Shown here piece by piece: positions 5,967 to 43,787 of a DNA stretch of 64,000 nt. The translations under genes were made by a program, and so were the position numbers. The notes under the pieces are model-generated. The model did not search any database. It was not told the DNA's origin and worked only from the letters and a program-made list of their open reading frames with translations. Each line of letters begins with the position of its first letter. The stretch's first letter is position 1. The stretch lies in the NCBI RefSeq assembly GCF_025526975.1, contig NW_026515681.1, positions 496,001 through 560,000 on the forward strand, given 5' to 3'. The DNA comes from Fimicolochytrium jonesii. Lineage: Eukaryota.

Positions 5967-6291
5967 TGCTCTTGAGTTCTGTTGACGAGGTCAACTCCTG
6001 AACGCACGAGAACAAGTGGGTGCTGGAATTGGCCTATAGGACAGGCGAAGGAGGAAACCAGCGAACTCGATGCTGCGTTCGACGGAGGTTGTCCGGAGCT
6101 AAGCACAGTAATGCAGATTGGGGGGTTCACCGTTTGGGGTAGCGGTGGTGGGTTCCGGCTGTTGCATGTGCGGCGGCGACATTCTCTCGGCTCTATCCAT
6201 CGATATGAAATTTTGGGAACGCGTGTGCGGAGCCTCTCTGCCCCGTGGGGGGAAATTTACAATGGGATCATCGTCCTCTATTGTCAACACT

Positions 6292-6318
6292 AGGGCGTTT
6301 CACTAGCCCACATAATCG
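6292..6318 (+). repeat. Left terminal inverted repeat
   Basis: AGGGCGTTTCACTAGCCCACATAATCG versus the right end reverse-complemented, AGGGCGTTTCACTAGCCCCCAATAATCG. Confidence 0.95.
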
Positions 6319-6684
6319 GACTTTTGCTCGGATTATCTCGCGATTATCTGCCGATTATTCCGGCGCGCACAGGAACGCGGTTGCTACGCGCTCCCCGATC
6401 GGCCCCCCAAGACACGTCATCCGGGGCCCGGCGCACCCCCCATCGCACCCCAGAAAATCGACAAAAATCGGCGGTTTCGCTGATCTGGGGTGTGCAGAAA
6501 AAGCTGCGTTTGGGGTGTTTTTTCTGCCCCACATAATCCGATTATCTGCACCCCCCCCGATTTTCTCCCTGCGGCGCAGGGTCCGTGCGGCGCAGCCCTG
6601 GACCCTGACCCCACGTGCCCCTCACCCCATGGGTCGCAGGAGTCTGAGGACGCCGAGCAACAGACTGACCTCAACCAGCCCAAC

Positions 6685-7947
6685 ATGCCTGGGACGTCTG
6701 ACCGTCAGCGGGCGATCGCGGAGCTCGCCGAGCGCATTGTCCTCCGGGAGGTGGTGGGATACTTCGACGGCCGGACTAGCGACGAAGACTCGTGGGCCGG
6801 GTCGTCGTCGGAATCGGAAGCCGAGCTCGAGTTCGACATCCTGGTGGCGCTGATGAGCAAGACGTACCTGGCTTCGCGGGACCCCGTCCCCAAACGGTTG
6901 TTTTGGGGGCTCCTGCACACCGTGGACGATGAACGGTGGCTGAACAAAGTGCGCATGAGCCGCACAGCATAAGGACAACTGCTCGACCTTGTCAAGGATC
7001 ACCCGGTCTTCCAGTCCCGAAATTCCGCCATCAAGCCGCAGGAGCCCGTATCTTCCCAGCTGTTTGTCGCTCTTTCTCGGTTGGGGCAGTATGGCAATGG
7101 GACCCGCGTGGGCCACATCGCTCGCATGTGGGGGGTATCTGAGGGGTGCGTTGGTAACTACACCCGCCGGGTCCTCGCGGCCATTGAGGAGGTCGGTAGC
7201 CGTGGCGGCTGGCTCGACTGGCCCACGGCCCAAGGGAAGGAGCTCATCAAGGAGCGCATCTACCGCAAGTCGTTCTTCAAAAACTGCATCGGCTTCGTGG
7301 ACGGGACACACGTTGTGTTTTTCCAGAAGCCCGGCGTAGATGGGGAGGACTTCTTCAACCGGAAGAGGATGTACAGTCTCAACGTGATGGTGGTCAACGA
7401 TGACACGGGACGGATTACCTACGTTCACACGGGAATGTGCGGGAGCGCCTACGACGCCCGCGTGTTCAGCCATTCGGCTTTGGCGCTGCAGCCAGACCTG
7501 TACTTTGGAGAGAACAAATATCTCATCGGGGACAGCGGGTACACCAACACCCTCACTGTCCTTGACAGCATGAAGGGACTGCACGCGGACGTCCCCGTTA
7601 ACAAGGTGTTCAACACTTACATTGCGCAGTTGCGCATCGTGAACGAGCACACGATTGGGCGCCTCAAGGGTCGTTTTCAGAGCCTCCGCGGACGCCGCGT
7701 CGTCGTGAAGGACGCCGACTCCGCCCGTTACGCGAATGCGTGGATCCGGGCGTGCTGCATGCTGCACAACTGGCTGATGGACGACGGGTATCCGCAAGAG
7801 TGGGGCGAGCAGGACCCCGATGCGTTTACGGCCGCTGGTGGTGGTGGGGTGCCGGACGTTACGACCCCCGCTTCGCGTCGGGAGGCGGATGCCCATAGGC
7901 ACAGCGTTCGGGACTACGTTCTTCGGAAACCCCTGGAGGTGGGATGA
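6685..7947 (+). pseudogene. Harbinger-type DDE transposase (HARBI1-like) with one premature stop
   Basis: ORFs 6490-6972 and 7081-7947 share a frame and are split by TAA at 6970-6972 (MSRTA*GQLL). Catalytic motifs IGFVDGTH, LIGDSGY and RIVNEHTIGRLKGRF; ACCMLHNW; HTH-like GHIARMWGVSEG. Confidence 0.93.
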
Positions 7948-8268
7948 TAGGGGCGCGTGGCGCAAGGTGTATTGTATTTGTTCCTGGAAGCGCTATAACC
8001 AAGAATGCTATTTCTGCCAACTATATATTCACGTTAGGGCCCGTGACGCCCCGTCTCCTCTCTCTCCCACCCCGTTTGCAAAGGTGCCACAACTCTCTCC
8101 TTGCTAGTAGCGCTGGAGACATCTCCTTGCTCGCTTGTCGCACCGGTTGCCCACGCGCACACCGCTCGGCCTCCGCGATATTCTGAAGCTGTCTCGGATG
8201 TCAACGGGTAAGTGTCTGCGGGGCCCAAGCGTACGACCCACATGGCAGAGGAATGTTACTCACGTGCG

Positions 8269-8407
8269 TTACTTCTTGGCTTTCGCGCCCGTGTACTCCT
8301 TCTTGCCTTTCGCTCTTGTGTCCTCCTTCTTGCCCGCTCCTGTGCCATGGTACGGCGTGCGGACCCGCTCAAATGGACCTGGTTCAAATGCAACCGGGGC
8401 GGCGGGA
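8269..8407 (-). pseudogene. 3' part of the third Harbinger gene (separated by the LTR insertion)
   Basis: Removing the LTR element and one TSD copy joins ...PVAAPVAP to AAPVAFEPGPFERVRTPYHGTGAGKKEDTRAKGKKEYTGAKAKK* in frame, and the PVAPAA repeat continues across the junction. The true 3' end is uncertain because a GTGAGT...ACAG intron-like segment follows. Confidence 0.65.
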
Positions 8408-8626
8408 TGTAATAATGCTAGGTCCGTTGCCAGAGGCTAGCTCTGTCCCCGCTCGATGTATTGAAAGAATTCTAGCGTTTCTACCTCCCGGGGCGCCGCC
8501 CGAAGGCTTTTCTTCCCTTCGGGAGTCACCCCAGAGCGTAGAACTCCAATTAAATCTATGCTACACGTGATCTCATGCCCTACGCGCTTCCCCGCACTAA
8601 GGTGACACCTGCAGCACCTCATTACA
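8408..8626 (-). repeat. 3' LTR
   Basis: TGTAAT...ATTACA; about 6 differences from 15435-15653 (counted by eye). Confidence 0.97.
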
Positions 8627-8634
8627 CCCCCCTT
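8627..8634 (-). other. Polypurine tract
   Basis: The minus strand reads AAGGGGGG immediately before the 3' LTR. Confidence 0.8.
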
Positions 8635-8854
8635 AGAGCCAAGTGTCACTCCGACAGCACCTGTCAGTCGCTCCCCGCTGTTACTTGATGTGGAGCTGAT
8701 ACAGGTGTCGGCCATGAGGAGTGCGCATGGCTCTACTGGAGCGGCTGGCGTCGCCGGCGGTCACCACGATGGCAATCAGATCCACGCCGATATGAGGTAG
8801 AGATGATTCGGCCGCATCTGGTCGTGGGGCGCTAAGGTCCTTGTCCCTGCGGCA

Positions 8855-8861
8855 TATAAAA
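8855..8861 (+). promoter_or_regulatory. TATA box of the antisense RING gene
   Basis: TATAAAA about 100 nt upstream of CACC-ATG-G (8962), with a pyrimidine-rich leader in between. Confidence 0.65.
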
Positions 8862-8961
8862 GGAAGGCAGTAGTCCCCTCGGCACCTTCCCGCCAGTCCT
8901 CGGACTTACATTTCTTGCTCCCAATCTCGTAACCTCTCACCGTCGCCGTTCCCCTCTCACC

Positions 8962-9720
8962 ATGGCCAGCGTAGCTCCTCCTGCCAAGCCCACCGCCGCC
9001 AGCCCGTCATCGGGCAAGAAGAAAGTAGGCGGAGGCCCCACCAAAGGGGACAGCCTGAAGAAGGCTCTCAAGTGACAGCGAGTGGTGAGTCCACGGAGGG
9101 CACCCAATTGACCGAACTTACGTGGTTTGACCAATTTTATCTCAGGACACCCCCGAGGTGCACTCGGACAGTACCACTGAGCCCCCGGCTCCACCGGCCC
9201 GACCTACGTGTTGGAACTGCAACAGGTAGCGCCCCCGCAAGATGTTCCTCTCGGCGTGCCAGCACGTTATATGCCGGCCTTGCATCCTCCAGCTCTGTGA
9301 TGACACCGTAAGGAACCGCATGTCATGGGTGGTTCCCGTGGGGTGACTGACAGCTCACGTCTCTTCCCGACAGACCAACACGCGCGTCGGGGCGTTCACG
9401 TGCGGCTACGTGGACAGTTTCGGGGAGGAGTGTGAAGTGCCGCGCTTCTGTCAGGCGCTACCCTGCACCTGTGTGTGGCCTGACTGCGATTGTCTGGCCG
9501 AGGACGTGCGGGTCTTCCCCTGCGACCACATCCAGTGTATGGGGCATGTCCGCGCGTAAGTACAACAGTCGTGAATTTTTGACAGGTCCCGCCACTGACG
9601 TGACGCGCTCCCTCTAGCCAGATGAACGTCCAGCAGTTCGTCCCGCTGCGTTGTGGCATGGGGACCGCCTGCCACGGCTCACGTTGCCAATGGTCTTTCG
9701 CCAAACAGGCTGGTATTTAG
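8962..9720 (+). pseudogene. Retrotransposon-borne antisense spliced gene for a ~189-aa tandem RING-finger-like protein; two in-frame stops in this copy
   Basis: Exons 8962-9084, 9146-9307, 9374-9555, 9618-9720. Introns of 61, 66 and 62 nt (GTGAGT/GTAAGG/GTAAGT...YAG; CTGAC branch sites in introns 2 and 3). The spliced frame gives CWNC-x11-CQHVICRPC...FTC-x9-C and CVWPDC...PCDHIQCMGH...RC-x5-C. Stops: TGA 9073 and TAG 9227. Confidence 0.85.
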
Positions 9721-9810
9721 CCTGGCGTCATCATTGTTCTTTCTTGTATATATTTTGTTGAATTTGATCTCTTCGGAGCGTTTCCTTTTGGTACTTCACC
9801 GATTGTCCTG

Positions 9811-10244
9811 AGCCCTGGTGCCTCGCACCCGCTCGCATCCTAGGCCTTGGTTTTGCATACCCGCCCGCATGAGCCCTGACACCTCGCTTGCCCGCTCGCA
9901 TAGGCCCTGGTACCCTGTACCCGCCCGCATCCTAGGCCTTGGTATTGCATACCCGCCCGCATGAGCCCTGACACCTCGCTTGCCCGCTCGCATAGGCCCT
10001 GGTACCTCGTACCCGCCCGCATCATAGGCCCTGGTATTGCATACCCGCCCGCATGAGCCCTGACACCTCGCTTGCCCGCTCGCATAGGCCCTGGTACCTC
10101 GTACCCGCCCGCATCATAGGCCCTGGTACTTCGTACCCGCCTGCATCATAGGCCCTGGTACTTCGTACCCGCCCGCATCATAGGCCCTGGTACTATGTAC
10201 CCGCCCGCATCATAGGCCTTGGTACTAGTACCCGCCCGCATGAG
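9811..10244. repeat. Higher-order tandem array: 14 units of 29-32 bp (92-bp trimer x3, then 32-bp monomers)
   Basis: Core CCCGCYYGCAT at 9828, 9860, 9891, 9920, 9952, 9983, 10012, 10044, 10075, 10104, 10136, 10168, 10200 and 10231. Confidence 0.95.
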
Positions 10245-10304
10245 TCCGTAATGGTAATGATCATTTCGGACAGTAGAAACTCTGTTTTGATGTATGTACA
10301 AGGT

Positions 10305-13300
10305 TCAGATATGTTTACGGCGACGTGAGACTGTCGCTCTCTCCTTCGCCTTGGTCTCCCGAGTCTGCTGGCCCTTTGCGGCTTGCTTTCGGACATATCG
10401 CCTGTGGGCCGAGGTGTCACGGACGTGTCGGAGTGGCTCCCATGTGTTCTGGGACACGTCGTAGCCGGCCCATTTGACCAGGAACATCTCGGTGTTGCGT
10501 ACCCACTTGGAGTCGAGGATGTCTTCAACTCGGTGTTCGAGTTCGCCAATGACTTCCTCCGGGGGGGGGTGGTGCGTCCACTTTTCGGTATGGGCCGTTC
10601 TCCGAAGGGTTGTACCTGCGTAGGATGTTGACGTGGAACACCGGGTGTAGTCCACTGAACTCGTGGGAGAGCTCCAGCTTGTAGGTGTCCGGGTGGGGCC
10701 CTTTTCCGCTGACGGTGAAGGGCCCGATCCATAGCGCGGAGAGCTTCTTGTTTCGGGCCGAGATACTCTTGATCTGGATGCCTTCGCGGTTCAGCAGGAC
10801 CTGGTCGCCTACTACGAACGCGTCCGTATTCTTGTTCCTGTCGTAGTATCTTGGCTGCCTGTCCTGGGCCTCTTGGAGTCTGTGCTGAACGATGCGGCTC
10901 ACCTCGGTCAGTTGCTGCATGCGCTCCTCAATTTCGATTGGCCTGTTTCAGTTGCTCTGTTGGGTCGCTGGTACCCCATTGGTCTGGTACCTTCGGGATG
11001 TACCCGATGTCGATCTCGTACGGGGACATGCCCGTGGAGGTCTGGGGCGTTCTGTTGTAGTTGTACTCGAGGAGGGGAAGCATCTTGCGCCAGTTCGAGC
11101 CGGTGTAGTTCAGGTAGAGGACCATCATCTTCTTGATTGTCTTGATGACGTTCTCCGTCTTGCCGTCGGTCTGTTGGTGGCGTGCCGACGAGAGTTCCTG
11201 CTCTACGCCGGCGCACTTCAGGAGGTGCTTCCAAAAGGCGCCGGTCCATTTGGTGTCCCGATCACTGATGATCATGTGGGGCATGCCCGTGATGCGGAAG
11301 GCCTGGTCGAAGAACAGCTGGGCGAGTTCCTTCGCCGTCACCTTGGCATGGGTCTCGAGGAGGATTACACGGCTTGATAAGTAGTCCACCAGGATGAGGA
11401 CGGCTCCCTTGTCCATGACGGACTCGTCTCCCGCTTCCCCCCCCTTAGAGTTCGTTGTGGGGAAGTAGATGTCCAAGCCGACGCAACGCCAGCGCTTGTC
11501 GGGGACCGGAATGCTGCGTAGGAGCCCGAAGTTGGAAGCCTGCTTGTTTCGTTGGCAGTCGGGACAAGTCCGGACGTACTGGTGGACCTCGCGCTCGAGG
11601 CGGGGCCAGTAGTTGAGCGCGAGGAGTTTGGCGACGGTGCGCTGGACACCCGAGTGACCGCCGTTGGCCAGGGAGTCGTGATAGAACCTGAGGAGGGGGC
11701 CCCGAAGGCCCTCGGGGACGTAGCGGCGGCCATGGTACAAAAGGAAGCCGCGGTCGTCACGCGTGAGGCAGCGGGCAAAACCCGAGAGGGTAGAGGGGTC
11801 GTCGGGGTTTGTCGCGGTGGTCTGCAGGTGGACGAGGGTGTCCCTGCAGAACTTGTCATCGTCGAGCGCAGTGAGCCACTCGGCGTCGGTAGGGAGGCGG
11901 CCGGTGATGTCCGGTAGCGGTGTCCCGGTGACAATGGAGAACACTTCGACCTTAATCTGACAGCTGGCGCACTTCGGGACGCACAGCGGGGTGCAGCTGA
12001 GTATGTCGGCGATGTGATTGAACTCGCCGGGGAGGTATTGGATAGTGAAGTTGTAGTCCTGAAGGAACTCCACCCATCCGGCCTGGCGCCGGGAGAGATG
12101 AGGCTGATTCTGGAGGTATATGAGGAATTTGTGGTCAACGAATGCACGGAATTGGCGACCGATGAGGTAGTGGCGGTTAGCGCAGATCACTTTGACCAAT
12201 GCGAGGAGCTCCTGTTCGTGCACGGTGTATCGGGTTTCGGCCGGAGCCATCTTGCGTGAGTCATATGAGATGACAAGGAGGCGCGGAAGGTTATTGAGGC
12301 CCTTTTTCGTGGTGGGCAGTGGATTCGGCATGGGAAAGTCGCCGTCCGTGCCCTGACCGATCCAGCCCCCTACAACGAAGCCCGACGCGTCAGAGAAGAC
12401 GTAGGGGAACTTATTGGGGTCGAAGAACGCCAGGCAAGGGGCATCGGCGACGTGCGCCTTGATGGTGTCCAATGCTGCTTGTTCCTCGGCGCCCCACTGC
12501 CACGGGTGGGTGCCGGATTGAAGGTTGGTCAGCGGGAGGGCTGTGTCAGCATGATACGGAATGTATTCCTTGACATAGTTGACTGGCCCCATGAAGGAGA
12601 GGAGCTCGAGGGCGCTGGTGGGTTCGGGTCGAGCGCGGACAGCCTCGACCTTGGCCGGGGCAATGGAAAGGCCGTCCTTACCAACCATGTGCCCGCAGAA
12701 CTTGACCTGGTCCACTGGCCACTGACATTTGGACGGTTTCACGTGTAGGCAGTGAGCCGAGAGGGTCTTGAGCACTTCGGTGACATGCCCGATGTGTGAG
12801 TCCATGTCGGGGCTGAAAATAAGGATGTCATTGTGGTAAGAGATGAGGTATGAATCGTACTTGTCGCCCAGGAGTTTGTTCGTAAGGCGTTGGAACGTCG
12901 CGGGCGCGTTCGTCAGCCCGAAGGGTAATACGTTGTACTGGAAGTGGCCAAAGCGCGTTCGGAAGGCAGTCTTCTCACGGTCTTCCTCCCGAATGAGGAT
13001 GCAACGGTAGGCATCGCGGATGTTGATAGCGGTCAAGACCTTCATGCCGACAAGGCGGTCCCAAAGCTCGTTGAGGTTCGGGAGGGGCGAGGCGTCCTTA
13101 TGGGTCATCTTGTTGAGGGCCCGGTATTTGATGCAGCAGCGGAGGCCACCGTCCTTCTTCGGGGCGAACAGCACGGGTGCCCCCCAGGGGCTCTTAGAGT
13201 GGGAGATCCACCCGCGGGATGATAGGCGCTCGAGTTGCTGCCGTAGCTTGTCGAGTTCATCGGGGGCCAATCCTCGGCTTTGGCGACGTCCGCGAGGGCG

Positions 13301-13895
13301 TCGTCTGTGGCCAGGTCCACCTCCGTGTCCGTGCGTGAGACCCATGCTTATCCCTCTTGATCGCTCGCTTGAATTGTTTGGTCGTGAGGAAGCCCTCCTC
13401 ATTTAAGGCCGCGCGCTTTGGGTAGAAACGGCGGGGGAGAGGGCCCGTATGAGGTTCGAGTAACCGGGCCGCGCAAGCGCTGGGTTGTTGCCATCAGCGG
13501 GTGGTAGGTTTAGCGCGGAAAGTTAGTACGGTTGCGTTAGCCTCAAATTGAAGCGCCGGGAACCCATTGTCGCGCCATGAGCGTATGAGGTCAAGGTCCA
13601 GGATGTAGGGTAGCCCTAGGATAACATCCGCGCGGATCGGGGCCACGACAAATGGGACCCGAGGGGTCTTATGAGGTATTCGTTCCTCTGTGAAGACGGA
13701 GAGGTCGGCACAAATCATCTGCGTGGCACCGTATGATCCGGCTTTGTCACCCCAGCGCACCTCGAGGGGCGTGGGACAGTCATACGTGTTAAGATCATGG
13801 CGTTGGGCTAATGAGTCGCCGATGAGCATGGTATTGCAACCAGTGTCTATGAGGATGCGGCAGAAGATGCCGCCGACACGTCCGGGAGAAAATCC
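10305..13895 (-). pseudogene. pol: pol: protease, RT, RNase H, integrase and chromodomain; frameshifted, with a mutated RT active site
   Basis: PR ILIDTGC; RT SPWGAPVLF, KTAFRTRFGHF, LPFGLTNAPATFQ and YHNDILI (expected YxDD); RH FSDASG, EQELLA; IN H-H-CPDC, IISDRD, DGKTE, WIGPF; chromodomain RVEDILDS...FLVKWAGYDVSQNTWEP. Frame breaks near 13500-13300, 10930 and 10560. Confidence 0.95.
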
Positions 13896-15340
13896 TGACT
13901 GTCAACGGAGTATGCGGGGCTCGGGGGCTCCTCCGCGGCCGAATGGAACTCGTCGTTGTCATCATCGAAGGCCTCGGCGGGCGCCGCCGAGATCTTGAGT
14001 CGGTCCGGGTTCTTAGGGCACGCTCGGGCGTAGTGGTCCTTGCTGCCGCAAGTGTGACATTCGCCTCGCTAAGTTTTCCTCTCCTTTCCAAGGGGTACTC
14101 GGTTGGAGTTGAAGGTGCGGGGCGTATCGCGCTTGTCGCGAGCCTGGGCCGGAGTGGCCGTAGCGGGTTGGATCCGTTTGCCGTCTTCCGAAATGCGGGC
14201 GATCCCATCAGCATAACCCCTGATGCGGAAGGCCCTCTGGGCGGCTTCCTTAAGGGTCTTGATGGGGATGTCTTTGTCCTCATTGCCCTGTTGTAGGATG
14301 AACTGGTAACACTGCTCACGGATGCGACGTCCGACCTGGTGGAAGGTCAGCCCGTTCAGGAAGTATTCACGCTCCTGTCGCGGCGTGAGATGTTCCTTTT
14401 CGGGGAGGATAGCGATCTGTCTGGTCAGTGCGCTGAAGGCCGAAACGTAGTCGGACATGCTGTCTTTGAACTTCAGGGCGGCCAGTTTCGCCTCAACCGA
14501 ATTACAGAGGTTGGCGGGGTAGAACCTGCGCCTGAGTGCCTTCAGGAACCGTTCTAGGGTGGCGGGAGACTCTCCGGAGCGAGCCTTGAGCTTCCACCAC
14601 TCAGCAGCGTCTCCCGGCAAGTGGGCTACGAAGTGTTTCACATCCCCGTCCTCCGTTTTGAATTCGGTGGCTTCCAGATAGCGTAGGTGGGCGTCGACAA
14701 ACTCGTCCAGTTTGGCGACCATGTCTTTACTGTTAGCCTTACCATCGAACTCGGTCAGCATCTTAGCCAAGGTGGCTCGGAACTCCTTCTCGGTGGCCGC
14801 CTTGCGCTTACGCTCTTCGCTAGCTGCCAAATGGTCCTCGCGGCTAACTTGTACTCCAGCAAAGAGGCTGTCATCTGGGCGGTCCCTCTCCAGGCGCTCG
14901 AATCGCTGCTGGAGTTGGGCGGTGGTGTTGGCCAGCTGGGCTAGGATTTGGAGGATTGTTGCCTGTCCGTTCTCCTGTCGGGCTGGGATACGGCTCCTGC
15001 GCCGCATGGGGGAGCGGCTTCGGGTCCTCGCCGGGGAGCGGCTGCGGTAGCGGCTTGCTGAGCGGCTCCTTCGATGGGGTGGGGAGATGCTCCTGCGACC
15101 TTGTCGTCCGCGCCTGTATCGCTCTGGCGTCCGATTCCGGCGTCGGGGGTCCAGGCTTCGACAACGACGAGGTGAGCGTGAGCGGGAGTGCCTCCTTCCA
15201 GGTGCAACCACGGGGGGACCCCCTGCGCCTGTGCAAGGGGCGGTTATGCTCCGCGGGGCGGTTGCCTTGGCGTTGGTCGCCGTCGAATCGTTGCGCTCTT
15301 CGATGCGGGTGTTCAAATGGGTCAAGCTCTAAGCGGTCAT
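13847..15340 (-). pseudogene. gag: gag with RS-rich N-terminus, capsid-like region and CCHC knuckle
   Basis: ORF 14069-15325 (HLPGDAAEWW, FLKALRRRFYP, SDYVSAF) continues past TAG 14069-14071 into CHTCGSKDHYARAC and stops at 13847. The start codon is uncertain (15340 or 15395). Confidence 0.88.
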
Positions 15341-15424
15341 TGTTAACTATCGCATAGCTGACGGCAGTATTAGCACCCGCCTGAGAGTTGCTCATCGTAG
15401 GTTGCCGGAGAGATCTTGAAGGGT

Positions 15425-15434
15425 GGTGCTACCA
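15425..15434 (-). other. Primer-binding site (initiator-Met tRNA type)
   Basis: TGGTAGCACC directly after the 5' LTR, close to the Ty1/Ty3 PBS TGGTAGCGCC. Confidence 0.8.
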
Positions 15435-15653
15435 TGTAATAATGCTAGGTCCGTTGCCAGAGGCTAGCTCTGTCCCCGCTCAATGTATTGAAAGAATTCT
15501 AGCGTTTCTACCTCCTGGGGCGCCGCCCGAAGGCTTTTCTTCCCTTCGGGAGTCACCCCATAGCGTAGAACTCCAATATAATCTATGCTACACGTGATCT
15601 CATGCCCTACGCGCTTCCCCGCACTAAGGTGACACCTGCAGCACCTCATCACA
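15435..15653 (-). repeat. 5' LTR
   Basis: 219-bp direct repeat of 8408-8626. Confidence 0.97.
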
Positions 15654-16445
15654 CAGGAGCGACGGGAGCGGCAACCGGAGCAGCGGGGGCGACGGGAGCA
15701 CCCGGGATAGTGTCTCTCTCAGCGTGGGTCAGACCCGACCTACCCGGCGCTTTCGAGTAGTAGTTGCGGGCTCCCTTCTTGCTCGTCGGGGGAGGGGTTG
15801 TCGCGCGCCCGTTACCCTTCTTGAGTCGCTTTCGTTGAGGCTCTTCCTCATCCGAGTTCACCTCGACCACTTCGATCGCCCCTGCAGGACGGTAGCTCGG
15901 GTCAACATCCTCGGAGTCGCTACTCCCCACCTCGATCACTTCCTGCGCCGTGATCCTGCCACTGCTTGCGGCGGTTGCCATGCAAGTCTCGATGGCCGTG
16001 AGGAGTTTCAACCCCGTGCCAGCTGGTGCATCTTGGTGGTGTGACGCCGCGCACCTTGGGGTGGCAAGCAGGCGCGCTATCGGAAGACGGGGTCAGTGGG
16101 GTCCGCCACACACAAGGAACAACACAAGGAACGAACTGTCTGACGTACCAGACGGCAAGGACTTCAAACGCGTGATCGCCAGGTCCCGGGTCACCTTATA
16201 GTCAGTCGTTGCGGATCGTGCAATGGCCTTGAATATCTCGTCCGTCGGTACCCATTCGCACATGTCCCGCAGTTCGATATATCTGCAAGCGTCATCAGAA
16301 CGGCCAGCAGGACCCCGAGCAGGACCCTCACTCTTCACTTACAAGAGAGCTAGGAGGTGCGCCGTCACATGGCGCAAGCCCGGGTCTCCGTATGACAGGG
16401 CGGCGGAGTCAAGTCTCCGCCCGTCGTGGCAAGTTGCTTGGACAT
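15654..16445 (-). pseudogene. 5' part of the third Harbinger gene: spliced, unknown nuclear protein with two SIM-like motifs and an NLS
   Basis: Introns 16342-16283 (GTAAGT..GCAG) and 16148-16077 (GTACGT..CTGAC..ATAG) join ORFs 16339-16575, 16093-16338 and 15649-16011 in frame. Motifs EVIEVGSSDSED, IEVVEVNSDEEE and PQRKRLKK. Using ATG 16445 requires one frameshift. Confidence 0.65.
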
Positions 16446-16867
16446 AGAGGGGGCTGGGACCGCAGGGTTGTTTGAAAACGCGCAAGCTACTGACAGCTGT
16501 GTGCGCTGAGACGAGGGGGGAGGCGTGCCCACCCCGACGTTTATGGGTGGATGTAGACCGCGGAGGAGCAAGCACCGGACGGTGTGGGCTGAAACATGTG
16601 GGGGTAGTGGGGTGTGGGGGGACCGGCGAGCCCTACCGCTGGGACGCGTGGCAGACGCCCGCCAAGCAGGTAAGAGGGACGGTAAGAGCTGGTCCCGGGG
16701 GGACATAGAGTCAACAGGCGTCATATTTCTGACATATGCGAGTTACCACGGAACACCTTTAAATCCATGCATGGTATAGACGGGAGTAGGGGGCCCACGA
16801 CGCCAGAGGTAGAGGTGCGGAGGGTGGGGGGGGGGGAGGGGGGGGGGGGCGCGCTCGTCAAACCAGC

Positions 16868-18041
16868 CTACTGCGCGGTGGGTTTGGTGTCCCGCAGCCT
16901 GGCCTTCATCTCGAGGGCCTTCATCTTGAAATCCCATTTGCGCTCGCTGTCCAGCCTGCGTCTCTCGGCGACCGCGCGCCGTTCCTCAAGCTTCAGCTGG
17001 AATCGTCGCTCCGCGGACTTCCTGACAAACCGCCGCTCCTCGAGCTCTGCCTCCCTCGCCTCTTGGCGCTCCTCAAGCTCCAAGTGAAAGCGTTGACCGG
17101 CCTCCTCTATGGCCAACCGCCTCTCTTCAAGTATCTGCTCATCCAGCTCATCCATCATGACTCTGCAAACCGCTAGACGGCCCCCCATCGGTTGGGGACT
17201 CCCCATCGCCGGCCGTGGACCCCTCCAGTATGTCCTCCAGGGCCATTTGCGACTCCATACCCGCAAAATCTCCCAGTTGGGAGTGAAGCTGCGACCCCAG
17301 CTGCTCCTGCGTGTCTGGTGGCGTCTGTGGTGGCGCCTCCGACGGGTTCTGCGTCTCGGACAGCGTGTCCTGCAGCGTTTCATGGGACCCTGCGGTTTCC
17401 GAGTCCTCCGGCGTCCCGGCCTTGTCCGGCGACTCACAAAGCAAAGGTGACTGTGGCGGGGCCCCCGAGACCAGCCCGGCGGCGAGGTTCGAGGGCAAGA
17501 TTGACGAGGCGGCCATTGACTCCTGAGACCCTACCGAGTGCAAGGCCGTCGTGCCAGCGCAGGACCAATAAGGCTCGAGCTCAAAGAAATATGGAAAGAT
17601 CTTGACGATACAGGCCTGTATGTTGGGGGTATTCCTCTTCTCCTCCTCCGTCAGACCCTCCCCCGTCTGATTGAATCGAAACTGGGCCTCCTTGAACTTC
17701 TTATCCTACTGTGCAAGCTAGTTCTTGATGCGAGTCTTGGTCATGTCCTTTCGGTTCTCATACATGAACATTTTTATCTTCCAAATCACGTCCGTTCGCT
17801 TATCCTTCTTCGAGCGGTTGACCCCGTTGGCGTCCGGGGTGTCGCGATGCTGCAGGGCCTTGGAGTTCTCGCCCGTAGAGAGCCAATGCACCAAGAGAGC
17901 CTCTTCTTCGTTGTCCCAAAAAGCGTATGCAGCGTTCGCCCGCTGCTTCCCCGCAGCGGACTTCGCGCTTGGCTTCTTTGCCCGGGGCTTGCGGGCCCCG
18001 GGAGCCCCGGCAGTAGAGGGTCCAGCGTCAGCAGACGACAT
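16868..18041 (-). pseudogene. Harbinger ORF2: Myb/SANT-like DNA-binding protein with C-terminal coiled coil
   Basis: FWDNEEEALLVHWLSTGEN...IKN*LAQ*DKKFKEA...NQTGEGL...IFPYFFELEP. TAGs at 17718 and 17706. A frameshift near 17185 leads into the E/R-rich coiled coil (EERRLAIEE...). Confidence 0.85.
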
Positions 18042-18359
18042 GGTGTTGGGGGCAATGGGGGGGTGTACGGTGAGGGGGGTTCGTTGTTGGTGCGGGCGGG
18101 GAGGCGGAACACCCCCAGGGTCCTGACGACCCCAGGTTCGCTGGAGGCCTTTTTGCTGCTCTCCCCCCGAGAATCCTGTTTTTCTACACCCTGGAGTAGC
18201 GGAACTGGGGAACGGGGGCCTCACTAGCCCCAGAAAATCGGGAAGCCCGACAGATCATCGGGACGTGATTGGGGGGAGCCTGCGCGCACGAACTCTGGAC
18301 GCGTCGCGAAACGCGCTCGCAGTTTCGCTAATCTCGCGATTATCTGCCGTTACTGTTTT

Positions 18360-18387
18360 CGATTATTGGGGGCTAGTGAAACGCCCT
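18360..18387 (-). repeat. Right terminal inverted repeat
   Basis: CGATTATTGGGGGCTAGTGAAACGCCCT followed by the TSD ACT. Confidence 0.95.
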
Positions 18388-18674
18388 ACTGGCTATGGCT
18401 TTGAAGCACAAAGCCAGCTTGTCCTCATCTCGGCGGCTCTTACCCAAGTGTTCACATGATTGCCGCACATCGCACCAGAAACCGCCATGGCCTGCTCTCG
18501 GAGACCCAAGCCACATCAACCACAAACCAAGTCCTAAACAATCTAATCTAGAGCTATGTTCGAAGGTAGATCCGCAACTGATGACCACTGTTCAATTCAA
18601 TTTTATATACAACAAACCAAAGAATGTTTGGTGAGGGTTGGAGGGCTGGAGGTGAATGGGTACGCACCACCGAC

Positions 18675-24732: not shown

Positions 24733-26595
24733 TTACACACAGATAAAACCAGAGGCACCGGGCGGAGGAGGTGGGGAAGGTGGAGGAAGGGCCCCTGCTG
24801 TCTTGGTCTTCGTCTTAGAGTTGCGGGGGCGACCGCGTCGCTTGTGCGGCAGGTCAAAACAGAAGGCCGCCCATCCATGCTCCGAGCATGTCTCACATGG
24901 GCGCTCCACATTGCATTTGAAGTGATGGGTTCGGCAAGGAACGCAAGCGTGAGGAACCTGCGGGAGTCGCCGCCCTTTTTGACTGACGGTTGTCAAGGAC
25001 GATCCAGACGGGCCTGCTTCCGAGGACGGCACGAGTGTGCGTGCGCGTTTAGGTGTTCTGGTAGCTAGCGGAACCGGGTTGGCTGAGATTGGCAAGCGTG
25101 GCTCCTCCATTGCCCCCGAAGCCGGGCGTTTGCGCTTTCTGGCTGCGTCTTCGGGGCTGGTAGACGAAGCGTTGGACGATCCTCGCCCGAAAGTCGGAAA
25201 TGTGTAGTACGTTTGGGCGTCAACATCCAGGCGAGCAGCGGAAATGCTGTGCACCGTACGCGTAGGAATATGTGCTTGGGCGGGAGCTGGGACACTCGCT
25301 CTCATCGGAGGTGGATGCGACGGTCGCGCTTGAAATTGTTGCTGCTGCAATTCGAGCGCATTGGCCCAGTAGATGTGAAAGTATTGAGGGTCACCTCCGG
25401 CCATGACATAATTCTGGAAAGGTGTCGCTGCCAGGATTCCTCCAACTGGTCGTTTTCCGGACGAATCCCTCACCGCTTGTCGACGACCAGAAGGAGGTCG
25501 AGCAGCATGCGCTACCGTCGTGATGGTTGATGTAGAGCGGGGAGCGCGCGATTGAGGGCCACTCGCAGATACGTCTCGGCGAGAGCCGGAAGAGGCCGGC
25601 ATAGTTGGCATTGCATACGTTAAGACAGCTGTGGTGCGAGGCAGGGTGCGGAGCGTCGATGCCTCCCGATGAGGCCCACAAAGGGCCTGCAAGCCTGTCG
25701 TGCCGGTAGATGTAGGTCGGCTGTTGCGTGGCTGGGCATGAAGTAGACGGTGTGTTTGCCTCACCACTAACGAGTCGGTAGATGTAGGCCGAGTGTTACG
25801 TGGCTCGGCATGATGTGAGTGACCCGGCTGCCTCATCACTGACGAGTCGGTAGATGTAGGCTGGGTGCTACGTGGCTGGGCGTGAAGCGGGCGGCCCGTT
25901 TGCCTCCCCACTGACGAGTCAGGGCCGGAACGAATGGTTGTTGGCCGATGGTAAGGCGTACTGCCATGTGCGCGACTTCCGAGCAGGCCTTGAGGAACTT
26001 GTCGGCCTATCGTGTGTACGGGACAGGCTGGCACTTCTGACCTTGGAGGCTGTAACGCAGTAGCACCGACAGCGGACGGACCCTGGTATGGGTCCGCCGC
26101 CGTGGCGTACTGGGGGAGGTGTCTAGCGTTTATGATTGCGTCAGGCGAGGCGGAGAACGGCAACGCCGGTTCCTGACGTGCGACTGAGTTCATGAATCCT
26201 GTGAAACTCGGCTCCATGAAGGGTATGAATTGAGTGGAGTTCGCAGGCGCAGCCGGAGGCACACTGAGAGGTAACGCAAAGGATGCTGCCGCGGAAGTAA
26301 AGGTTGAGAGTGCCGAGCCATGGCTGGTCGCAGCGGCACTTGAAGATGACGAGCCTTGAGTCGATTGCGAGCGGCCTCGTTTGAGGACGATTCCTTTGGC
26401 CTTTACGAATTCGTCAAAATCGAAGATTTCCCCTTGTTCGAGGAAGTCGGCACGAGAGTGAATGTCGTCGTCTTCATGGCAGGTAGTTGAGGTGCTGGTT
26501 GCCAGCGATTCTTCCTGCTCGGCCGCCGGAGCAGCGAGATTGAGGAAGCCGTCCAGCGGGAACGAGTCGTCTTCCAGGATTTCCTGAAAGAGCAT
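24733..26595 (-). CDS. Zn(II)2Cys6 cluster protein, intronless, cluster at the C-terminus
   Basis: 620-aa ORF with HACVPCRTHHFKCNVERPCETCSEHGWAAFC followed by KRRGRP. Confidence 0.8.
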   Translation of the reverse strand: MLFQEILEDDSFPLDGFLNLAAPAAEQEESLATSTSTTCHEDDDIHSRADFLEQGEIFDFDEFVKAKGIVLKRGRSQSTQGSSSSSAAATSHGSALSTFTSAAASFALPLSVPPAAPANSTQFIPFMEPSFTGFMNSVARQEPALPFSASPDAIINARHLPQYATAADPYQGPSAVGATALQPPRSEVPACPVHTIGRQVPQGLLGSRAHGSTPYHRPTTIRSGPDSSVGRQTGRPLHAQPRSTQPTSTDSSVMRQPGHSHHAEPRNTRPTSTDSLVVRQTHRLLHAQPRNSRPTSTGTTGLQALCGPHREASTLRTLPRTTAVLTYAMPTMPASSGSRRDVSASGPQSRAPRSTSTITTVAHAARPPSGRRQAVRDSSGKRPVGGILAATPFQNYVMAGGDPQYFHIYWANALELQQQQFQARPSHPPPMRASVPAPAQAHIPTRTVHSISAARLDVDAQTYYTFPTFGRGSSNASSTSPEDAARKRKRPASGAMEEPRLPISANPVPLATRTPKRARTLVPSSEAGPSGSSLTTVSQKGRRLPQVPHACVPCRTHHFKCNVERPCETCSEHGWAAFCFDLPHKRRGRPRNSKTKTKTAGALPPPSPPPPPGASGFICV

Positions 26596-42231: not shown

Positions 42232-43787
42232 CTAATCTGTCTCGTCATAAGTGTTATCCACGGCCCCAACCATCAACTTGACCAACCACATTCCCGGGGT
42301 CAGGCTAACACCCTTCTTCGCCATCTCCTGCTGCTCGAGCTCAAAGTAAGACGTGCAATCAATCATCTTGCCCACAACGGGGTCGTTATCCAACGCCGCC
42401 AAGAACTTTTGCGCGCCGGCGTCTTTACCGACTTGCGCAAACTGGAACGCGACAGCGGTGGGTCCATAGCGGGTCGACGCGAGGGCCTGTTTAGCGCCGC
42501 TAATGACGGTGTTGATCTGGGAACGGGGTTCGCCGACCGGTTCGCCGTCGGTGATGACGACAACGAGGATGGGTTTAGGGAGGGAGTTATTGCGGGCGGG
42601 ACCCACGATGATGGGTTGGATGACTTTGGCGTCGAGTTTGGTGCCGAGGGGGGTGGTGCCCATGTAGTTGACGGAACGGACTAGTTTGGAGGCTTCGGCT
42701 TCGGTGCGGATGTTGTTGCCTTGCTGGTCGTTGTTCATGAAGCGGACGCTCTGTTGAAGAATGGGAGGGTTAGCATGCGTCTACGACGCTCAGGAGTATC
42801 TCAACGGGAATTATAACTTACGATGCCATCTTGATCAAACAATGATGAGATCTCGGCGACTTTCGAAACGATAAGATTCAAGTCTTCCACGCGCTCTCCG
42901 CCTTCCGCGGCAATCATGGATCCAGAATCGTCGGCGTAAATGACAATGTCATACAGCGCCAATGATGCAAGGTCGTACGCGAGTTCCGGCGTCTGGAGCT
43001 TCCACTGAGCGGTGAGGTAATCAAAGTCCACCGAGCGGGAGACCCTGTCTGCGATTTGTTGAACCGTTTGTGGGGGATAGAAGTTGCCCAATTGATTGCT
43101 TTGAACGATGAAGTTCAGCTTGTTCAGAATAACTGGGAAGGCACGTTGAGCGGCCTGTGGATGCGGGGGATTCCGTGAGACGCCCATCTCTCCGCCCTGT
43201 TGCGGAGGAGCGCCGTATTGTCCTTGAGGAGGTGCTCCGCCGTACTGCCCTTGAGGAGGTGCTCCGTATTGACCCTGGGGGGCTCCGCCGTACTGCCCTT
43301 GAGGAGGTGCTCCGTATTGACCTTGAGGGGGTGCTCCACCGTACGGATTGAGCTGAGGCGGTCCACCAAACTGGCCCTGAGGAGGTGCTCCACCATATGG
43401 TCCTTGAGGAGGTGCGCCACCATATTGCCCTTGCGGTGGCGGGACGTAAAAGCCGCCGGGACCGCCTGGCGGTGCGAACCCTCCGGGACCTTGTTGCGGC
43501 GCTCCATACTGACCATGACCTCCAGCGGGAGGAGGTGCGAAGCCACCAGGTGGTCCACTAGGCGGTGCTGATGCGGGAGGTTGACCACCGTAAGCACCAC
43601 CATACGCGCCTTGCGGAGGAGGTTGTTGTGGGTTGTAGGGCTGTTGACCTGGGGGAGCTTGGCCGTAGGCACCAGGAGGCGGGCCACCTGGGGTTCCATA
43701 CTGCTGTTGCTGCTGCTGTCCGTACGCACCAGGAGGGGCCCCACCAGGAGGAGCACCACCCGCGGCTAGTTTGCTTGCGAGACCCAT
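42232..43787 (-). CDS. vWA-domain protein with G/P/Q/Y-rich repeat N-terminus
   Basis: MGLASKLA start, (GAPPQGQYG)n repeats, MIDAS-like [15 protein letters not shown] and VVITDGEP; one intron near 42750-42820. Confidence 0.88.

Follow-up and report, generated by a model that had tools for sequence, protein, structure and literature searches.

Additional genes in the form of antisense open reading frames, located between pol and the 3' LTR, form a recognised class in LTR retrotransposons, known from plants and from the fungal element Boty (PMC7264820, PMC4227169, PMC8365987, each available in part). The nearest case by layout is brtn of the Boty-like chromodomain Ty3/Gypsy elements of the ascomycetes Botrytis cinerea and Sclerotinia sclerotiorum, an antisense extra gene of unknown function located between pol and the 3' LTR, at the chromodomain end, for which the accessible parts of the same three sources describe no RING domain. 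In plants the aORF-3R genes of maize Grande (gene23), rice RIRE2, Silene Retand and bean PvRetro13 encode basic proteins of nuclear type; an own promoter has been shown for Grande, and a tandem array in the same region is indicated for Retand by the title of a cited paper (PMC7264820, in its available portion). The same review, published in 2020, states both the origin and the function of antisense additional ORFs to be open and, in that portion, describes them as being without similarity to host genes, other transposable elements or viruses and without clear database matches (PMC7264820). Within the literature searched, which took in few subscription papers, neither a RING gene antisense in an LTR element nor its exchange with a Polinton-like virus was found; in the accessible text of PMC10799480 Polinton, LTR retrotransposon, RING finger and chytrid all occur, but in unconnected passages.

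The window, i.e. the whole 64,000 nucleotide stretch of the Fimicolochytrium jonesii genome analysed here, contains a Ty3/Gypsy element on the minus strand. Its layout is of the aORF-3R or brtn type, with a coding unit between pol and the 3' LTR on the strand opposite to gag-pol. The initial annotation had presented this arrangement as not known from fungal chromoviruses, a view that does not hold, as brtn of Boty occupies the same place. A second instance is the contig L001, a distant Ty3/Gypsy element (33% Pol identity to the Pol protein P0002) with an intact but sequence-unrelated antisense gene 3' of pol. The features of the element in the window are the following.

8403..8407 and 15654..15658: target duplication (5 bp), CGGGA and CAGGA, flanking both LTRs
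8408..8626, minus strand: 3' LTR, TG...CA, 219 nt, 6 mismatches to the 5' LTR
8627..8635, minus strand: polypurine tract AAGGGGGG, abutting the 3' LTR
9812..10244, no strand given: tandem array, 92-nt unit repeated 4.7 times and made of 32-nt subunits, separating the antisense gene from pol, whose ends converge on it
10305..13901, minus strand: pol (protease, RT, RNase H, integrase, SH3, chromodomain), with one stop and several frameshifts
14069..15328, minus strand: gag, Ty3 capsid, with a zinc knuckle next to it in another frame
15427..15434, minus strand: primer binding site TGGTAGCA
15435..15653, minus strand: 5' LTR of the Ty3/Gypsy element

The features expected of a Ty3/Gypsy chromovirus were found, namely TG...CA LTRs, a target duplication, a primer binding site (presumably of the initiator tRNA-Met type), a polypurine tract (PPT), gag followed by PR-RT-RNase H-integrase, and a C-terminal chromodomain. 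The order of domains by Pfam is Ty3_capsid, Asp_protease_2, RVT_1, RT_RNaseH, Integrase_H2C2, SH3_Tf2-1 and Chromo. Gag-pol is neither intact nor autonomous: besides the stop and the frameshifts the YLDD motif reads YHND, and 26 of 216 near-invariant Pol columns are altered. This copy of the element is dead. Among the best 120 of 4,888 Pol matches the nearest relatives are a metagenome contig (63% identity) and Powellomyces hirtus (60%), and in a tree of the quick type the Pol of the window clusters with P. hirtus and metagenome relatives with support values of 98 and 100. These Pol affinities suggest a chytrid host close to Powellomyces (Spizellomycetales). The clade formed by the window Pol (10931-13255) and P0002-P0022 shares an insertion rich in proline within RNase H, a CxxC following that domain and the integrase motif ARHQQTDGK; it has four complete members from metagenomes, three of which carry tandem repeats near the 3' end.

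The surroundings of the LTR element are themselves mobile. It is nested inside a PIF/Harbinger-type DNA element (6291-18388) with 19-nt inverted ends and TA at both outer edges, which carries a DDE_Tnp_4 transposase on the plus strand (6973-7944) and further genes on the minus strand. The LTR insertion interrupts a third gene of the Harbinger-type element (minus strand, about 16340-15654 and 8407-8260); this gene has no Pfam match and shows a basic cluster and two hydrophobic-plus-acidic motifs (VIEV..., IEVVEV...), which resemble SUMO-interacting motifs. Other tandem repeat families are found at 43194-43448 and 25695-25920 (27-nt and 72-nt spacing), and intron-containing eukaryotic genes (PKC-like, Slu7) are also present in the window.

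The antisense gene lies inside the LTRs, between the pol stop (10305) and the PPT (8627-8635), and is composed of four exons.

8855..8861, plus strand: TATA-like box TATAAAA, putative promoter role
8962..9084, plus strand: exon 1, Pro/Ser-rich, basic N-terminus, premature TGA at 9073
9085..9145, plus strand: intron 1, 61 nt, GTGAGT...CAG, phase 0; the homologue P0124 has a 25-aa insert at the same place
9146..9307, plus strand: exon 2, first six ligands of RING-like module 1, premature TAG at 9227
9308..9373, plus strand: intron 2, 66 nt, GTAAGG...CAG, phase 0; again a 25-aa insert of P0124 at the same place
9374..9555, plus strand: exon 3, completing module 1 with its last ligand pair and beginning module 2 (first six ligands)
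9556..9617, plus strand: intron 3, 62 nt, GTAAGT...TAG, phase 2; P0124 ends at its donor
9618..9720, plus strand: exon 4, with the final four Cys/His of module 2 and the stop codon; identity of 52% to the end of the homologue P0125
9721..9770, plus strand: T-rich 3' region with TATATA, a putative 3'-end signal

The start context is CACCATGG with its ATG at 8962, and the spliced frame of 570 nt comprises 189 codons and a TAG at 9718-9720. The TATAAAA at 8855, the ATG at 8962, the three GT-AG introns and the stop at 9720, all claimed in the initial annotation, were verified, and splicing at these sites reproduced its protein letter for letter. It had also described both internal stops of the spliced frame as TGA derived from CGA, which is right as to TGA for the first (9073) and wrong for the second, a TAG (9227). 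The gene is therefore now broken by two stops. In a rough set of intron candidates outside mobile elements (n=23) the median length is 79 nt and the range 51-113.

The exon structure can be compared to intact proteins of the cultured chytrid P. hirtus. A full HMMER search with exons 2 to 3 read through with X gave three matches among 1.84 billion representative proteins, and a profile search of 5.8 billion clusters, covering lengths of 18-345 only, found the same three clusters and no others. All three are from Powellomyces and hold six accessions in all. Five are hypothetical proteins of P. hirtus, on at least four contigs and two of them adjacent, including two full-length intact proteins of 178 aa which are 94% identical to each other; the remaining one, P0124 (DAC81638.1), is annotated as oncoid [Powellomyces chytrid fungus MELD virus 1] on a contig of 21,205 nt. 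The spliced product is identical to the intact P. hirtus protein P0128 in 72 of 166 columns (43%), exon 4 included, with a local alignment score of 342 against a shuffle mean of 34 (maximum 57 in 300 shuffles), and keeps all 18 Cys/His ligands. As the spliced product aligns with intact P. hirtus proteins, the splicing model is confirmed. When all nearby GT-AG pairs were ranked by the local alignment score of the spliced product to P0128, the sites of intron 2 came first of 12 and those of intron 3 first of 28, while those of intron 1 were second among 12 by a single point (342 versus 343).

Two further accounts of the segment were discarded. Chance open frames are ruled out by the homology to the intact P. 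hirtus proteins, and for a separate insertion with ends of its own none of the 13 direct or 16 inverted repeat families provides terminal repeats or a duplication. We regard it as practically certain that the segment is a real spliced four-exon gene, and homology together with the position within the LTRs bears out the claim that it is part of the element. Since it sits between an intact LTR-PPT end and pol, the copy of the element was inserted carrying the gene.

Other searches gave no further relatives. A word-based protein search with the intron-containing read-through found no match, nor did a gene scan of phage records; none of 105 stretches from an exon 3 scan of metagenome contigs was confirmed, and the same applies to the viral contigs scanned with P0124 (5 stretches) and with the three-sequence alignment (49 stretches). 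A PDB sequence search returned four weak and unrelated rows. No single-copy orthologue was found in any other fungus among the 1.84 billion proteins and the 5.8 billion clusters. To judge by these matches, the homologues look mobile, being multi-copy in P. hirtus, present on a viral record and absent from other fungi, and this agrees with the earlier description of an accessory-type mobile gene. Because they are multi-copy and restricted to one genus, a mobile gene fits better than a host orthologue.

The product carries two Cys/His-rich modules. Module 1 (C-x2-C-x12-C-x-H-x2-C-x2-C-x17-C-x4/9-C) is a C3HC4 pattern in RING spacing, conserved in the window, P0124, P0125 and P0128, with the last pair widened to C-x4-C or C-x9-C. 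The top Pfam match in the window product (E 9e-5, 22.8 bits) and in all three homologues is zf-RING_5, with scores of 22.8-23 bits, below the curated cut-off of 27.9; Pfam RING models span the first six ligands only. The P0125 model has a mean pLDDT of 39, and of 44-59 over module 1; with it Foldseek matched RING domains, none at E <= 0.001, and a wide structural search with the same low-confidence model gave a best Z of 6.3 (rmsd 3.9 over 69), below the chance-level Z of 7-8 of the tool. The 50 structural matches listed are all RING, SP-RING or U-box domains, by title or by the identity of the chain, and most structural matches are E3 ligases. Module 1 very probably adopts a RING fold. Module 2 (C-x4-C-x11-C-x-H-x2-C-x2-H-x14-C-x5-C, then H and C, ten conserved ligand candidates) is RING-like in spacing by eye. 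It gave no match to Pfam, nor any to module 1 by profile comparison (probability 0.4%), and its pLDDT when folded alone is under 50 throughout. Of the tandem RING protein originally proposed, the first module is thus borne out as RING-like, by Pfam and structural matches, and a second RING is no more than a candidate.

Whether this domain is a ligase is a separate matter. RING ligases usually contact the E2 through an Ile/Leu after the start of the first Cys pair, a Pro after the seventh ligand and an Arg after the eighth; against this consensus the window gene and its homologues read CWNC/CWKC, CG and C-E/C-G, so that most of the contact residues are absent. For this reason the odds of the predicted ubiquitin-ligase activity are only about even, with a slight lean towards it. 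Compared to the C3HC4 (RING-HC) E3 ligases, such as the TRIM and TRAF RINGs, the ligand pattern of module 1 is alike and the best Pfam and structural matches are of this type, whereas here the scores are below cut-off, the last pair is widened, few E2-contact residues are present and the second module is unplaced. The missing contacts would suit an alternative in which the gene is a true accessory gene and its RING a zinc-binding scaffold for dimerisation or for binding chromatin or polymerase, like arenavirus Z or the RING subunit of TFIIH. The structural matches listed include the Z proteins of Lassa and Machupo as well as further RINGs that are not ligases, and the Cys-rich antisense genes of other fungal elements (L001) are not RINGs. 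On the opposite side, most structural matches listed are E3 ligases, and RING1 of RBR ligases has a widened last ligand pair and still binds its E2. We rate the scaffold as rather unlikely. An RBR ligase (RING1-IBR-RING2), with three zinc modules including the catalytic RING2, was rejected for a product of 178-189 aa which has two modules only.

The homologue on a viral record is a link absent from the initial annotation. A single Powellomyces data set yielded the assemblies of six MELD viruses, and oncoids were named from short motifs (PMC8502044, available in part). P0124 matches the query at E 9e-19 and is 47% identical to the spliced product over 111 columns, with the same ligands; at 40-53% identity to P0125, depending on the alignment, it represents a third subfamily. 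It contains two inserts of 25 aa, each running from V to Q and located exactly at introns 1 and 2 of the window gene, and it ends in VRA, as does the window frame at donor 3, the frame being open up to this third donor. In phase 0 the intron ends GT and CAG are translated to V and Q. From these insert ends and from the VRA terminus we infer that the three intron positions are common to P0124 and the window gene. The annotated oncoid thus seems to include two introns as translated sequence and to terminate at the third donor, which suggests that P0124 is better read as a spliced RING-like gene than as a single unspliced ORF. An Rb-binding oncoprotein was rejected, as the LxCxE/D motif, which alongside CR1 is an Rb-binding signature of oncoids (Starrett et al. 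2021), is absent from all four proteins, the named oncoid included. The paired CxxC motifs by which oncoids are recognised are present, and here they are RING ligands.

The gene is likely common to the retrotransposon and a Polinton-like DNA virus, on these sequence comparisons, while its true residence in the DNA virus is evenly balanced. The main rival is that the gene is confined to LTR elements and that the oncoid of MELD virus 1 is the remnant of a retrotransposon nested in the 21-kb contig. Mobile elements do nest, as the LTR element inside the Harbinger-type element of this window shows, and a figure legend of the MELD virus paper gives Gag- and retropepsin-like genes for an element (Fig. 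5 in PMC8502044, available in part). Yet the best 120 of 4,888 Pol matches include none whose name assigns it to a MELD virus, and P0124 belongs to a third subfamily with its frame open to the third donor. We consider this nested remnant somewhat unlikely.

Within the element family of the window the gene probably travels with the element. Pieces of 151 nt from two unrelated metagenome runs (two sequencing runs, small shares of each) cover exons 2-4, the array and the chromodomain and are 94-99% alike to the window; the junction of exon 4 and array is spanned by one of them, and another, with 156 nt less of the array, runs to 10278. Among the records that passed the filter, neither run gave a long piece over the gag-pol core. 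At a depth of 2 these could be a diverged allele or sibling copies. One exon 3 piece has seven changes, mostly non-synonymous and including one Cys, which at this depth may be errors, and a sibling piece shows two differences somewhere within 9226-9290, a stretch that includes the stop at 9227. In order to find complete relatives the integrase motif was scanned, giving 19 loci, of which 11 without a Pol match were dropped; of the 8 with Pol only 4 reach the PPT. By tblastn and profile the gene is absent from all four of these (L009, L010, L015 and L017, Pol 43-49% identical to P0002), in which pol and PPT are 339-909 nt apart as against about 1,670 nt in the element of the window, and no gene match was found at any of 20 loci. 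Viral contigs scanned with Pol gave 0, 1, 0 and 0 loci. The four complete relatives fall outside the Pol subclade of the window in the quick tree, and the gene is thus at most a feature of the Powellomyces-related branch. The closest complete relative, L017 (1965-3133), has about 900 nt separating the end of a long pol frame from the PPT; a TATA-like word occurs in antisense there, but no clear spliced gene.

The absence from these four relatives would also be expected if the gene were a one-off capture by antisense read-through, taken from the host or some other mobile element and decaying as cargo of no use to the retrotransposon. The stops agree with this: two in 189 codons are slightly above the 0.25-0.29, i.e. 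about 0.3, expected at the 1.4% divergence derived from the LTR pair, with P about 0.03. The excess weakens to P 0.10-0.13 at a divergence of 3%. The earlier reading of the stops as post-insertion decay like that of gag-pol is strained by the first figure and eased by the second, and loss of gene function before the insertion is possible. Against a one-off capture there is no single-copy orthologue in any other fungus in the protein and cluster searches, all 18 ligands and the six splice ends persist at 43% identity, and metagenome pieces diverged by 4-6% retain the junction of exon 4 and array. Pol is equally decayed (the altered columns, the stop and the several frameshifts), which argues for more decay in the inner region than the LTR divergence would indicate. 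We hold a one-off capture to be improbable.

The transcription unit could also act as antisense RNA, through double-stranded RNA and small RNAs, with the protein incidental, as has been proposed for antisense ORFs generally (PMC7264820, in its available portion). The transcript would stop near 9770, about 530 nt before pol, and it is the protein ligands that are conserved at 43% identity; this alternative is very remote.

Our preferred reading, to which we assign a probability of about 0.55, is that the locus holds a broken antisense accessory gene of chytrid mobile elements, likely common to a Polinton-like virus, encoding a nuclear RING ligase or adaptor that acts on a host factor. The gene would be expressed from its own promoter (TATA at 8855) and spliced by the host, the basic N-terminus would take the product to the nucleus, and the RING would bind an E2 or a partner, altering a host factor in favour of the element. 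A silencing or defence factor as its target is a tentative suggestion. Introns opposite to the genomic RNA strand escape splicing from it, and the gene is thus copied intact at each retrotransposition; a DNA virus keeps introns in any orientation. The Powellomyces-related subclade may have acquired the gene by antisense read-through with template switching or by recombination with a mobile element at the DNA level. Transfer may have gone from virus or host to retrotransposon by read-through and template switching, or in reverse by insertion and decay; the latter route coincides with the rival of a viral oncoid located in a nested LTR remnant. The boldest version, that a RING ligase gene with its introns has been exchanged between an LTR retrotransposon and a Polinton-like virus and serves both in the destruction of a host silencing or defence factor, is doubtful. 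If true, this would give the first demonstration of an accessory counter-defence gene moving between a retrotransposon and a DNA virus without loss of its introns; it would likewise be the first time that an enzyme activity could be assigned to an antisense ORF of a retrotransposon.

In its layout the locus is ordinary; the cargo is new, and its homologue on a Polinton-like virus record is unexpected. Both the origin and the function of the gene can now be tested, since it has a recognisable RING-like domain, with intact homologues in a cultured chytrid and a further one on the record of a DNA virus. The GenBank oncoid of a chytrid virus is suggested to be a mis-read spliced RING-like gene, and on this reading the record becomes a weaker case of an oncogene-like protein occurring in a unicellular host.

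The antisense gene of L001 (minus strand, 439-1 and 7117-6495, the contig being circular) has a TATA-like box, a likely 5' UTR intron and three coding introns of 39, 65 and 60 nt, and encodes 259 aa with a Cys-rich N-terminus and a weak Pfam match only. The oncoid DAC81638.1 is a true homologue, alike in its ligands and in the intron positions assigned to it, and differs by being on a 21-kb contig of a Polinton-like DNA virus and by its annotation as one unspliced ORF resembling tumour-virus oncogenes. In the bdelloid rotifer ORF3 types extra ORFs are likewise common to unrelated mobile elements within a single host group and restricted to recent branches; there the exchange is among LTR and other retroelements, with no RING or intron mentioned in the part of the source available, whereas here the partner would be a DNA virus (PMC5408684). 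The likeness to brtn is one of layout (PMC7264820, PMC4227169, PMC8365987, as available). The plant aORF-3R genes are alike in position, orientation and the basic nature of the protein, and are distinguished, as far as the accessible text of the review goes, from the gene described here by its RING-like domain, its three introns and its homologue on a virus record (PMC7264820). What is new at this locus is therefore a RING-type cargo, likely common to a retrotransposon and a DNA virus, in a layout already known.
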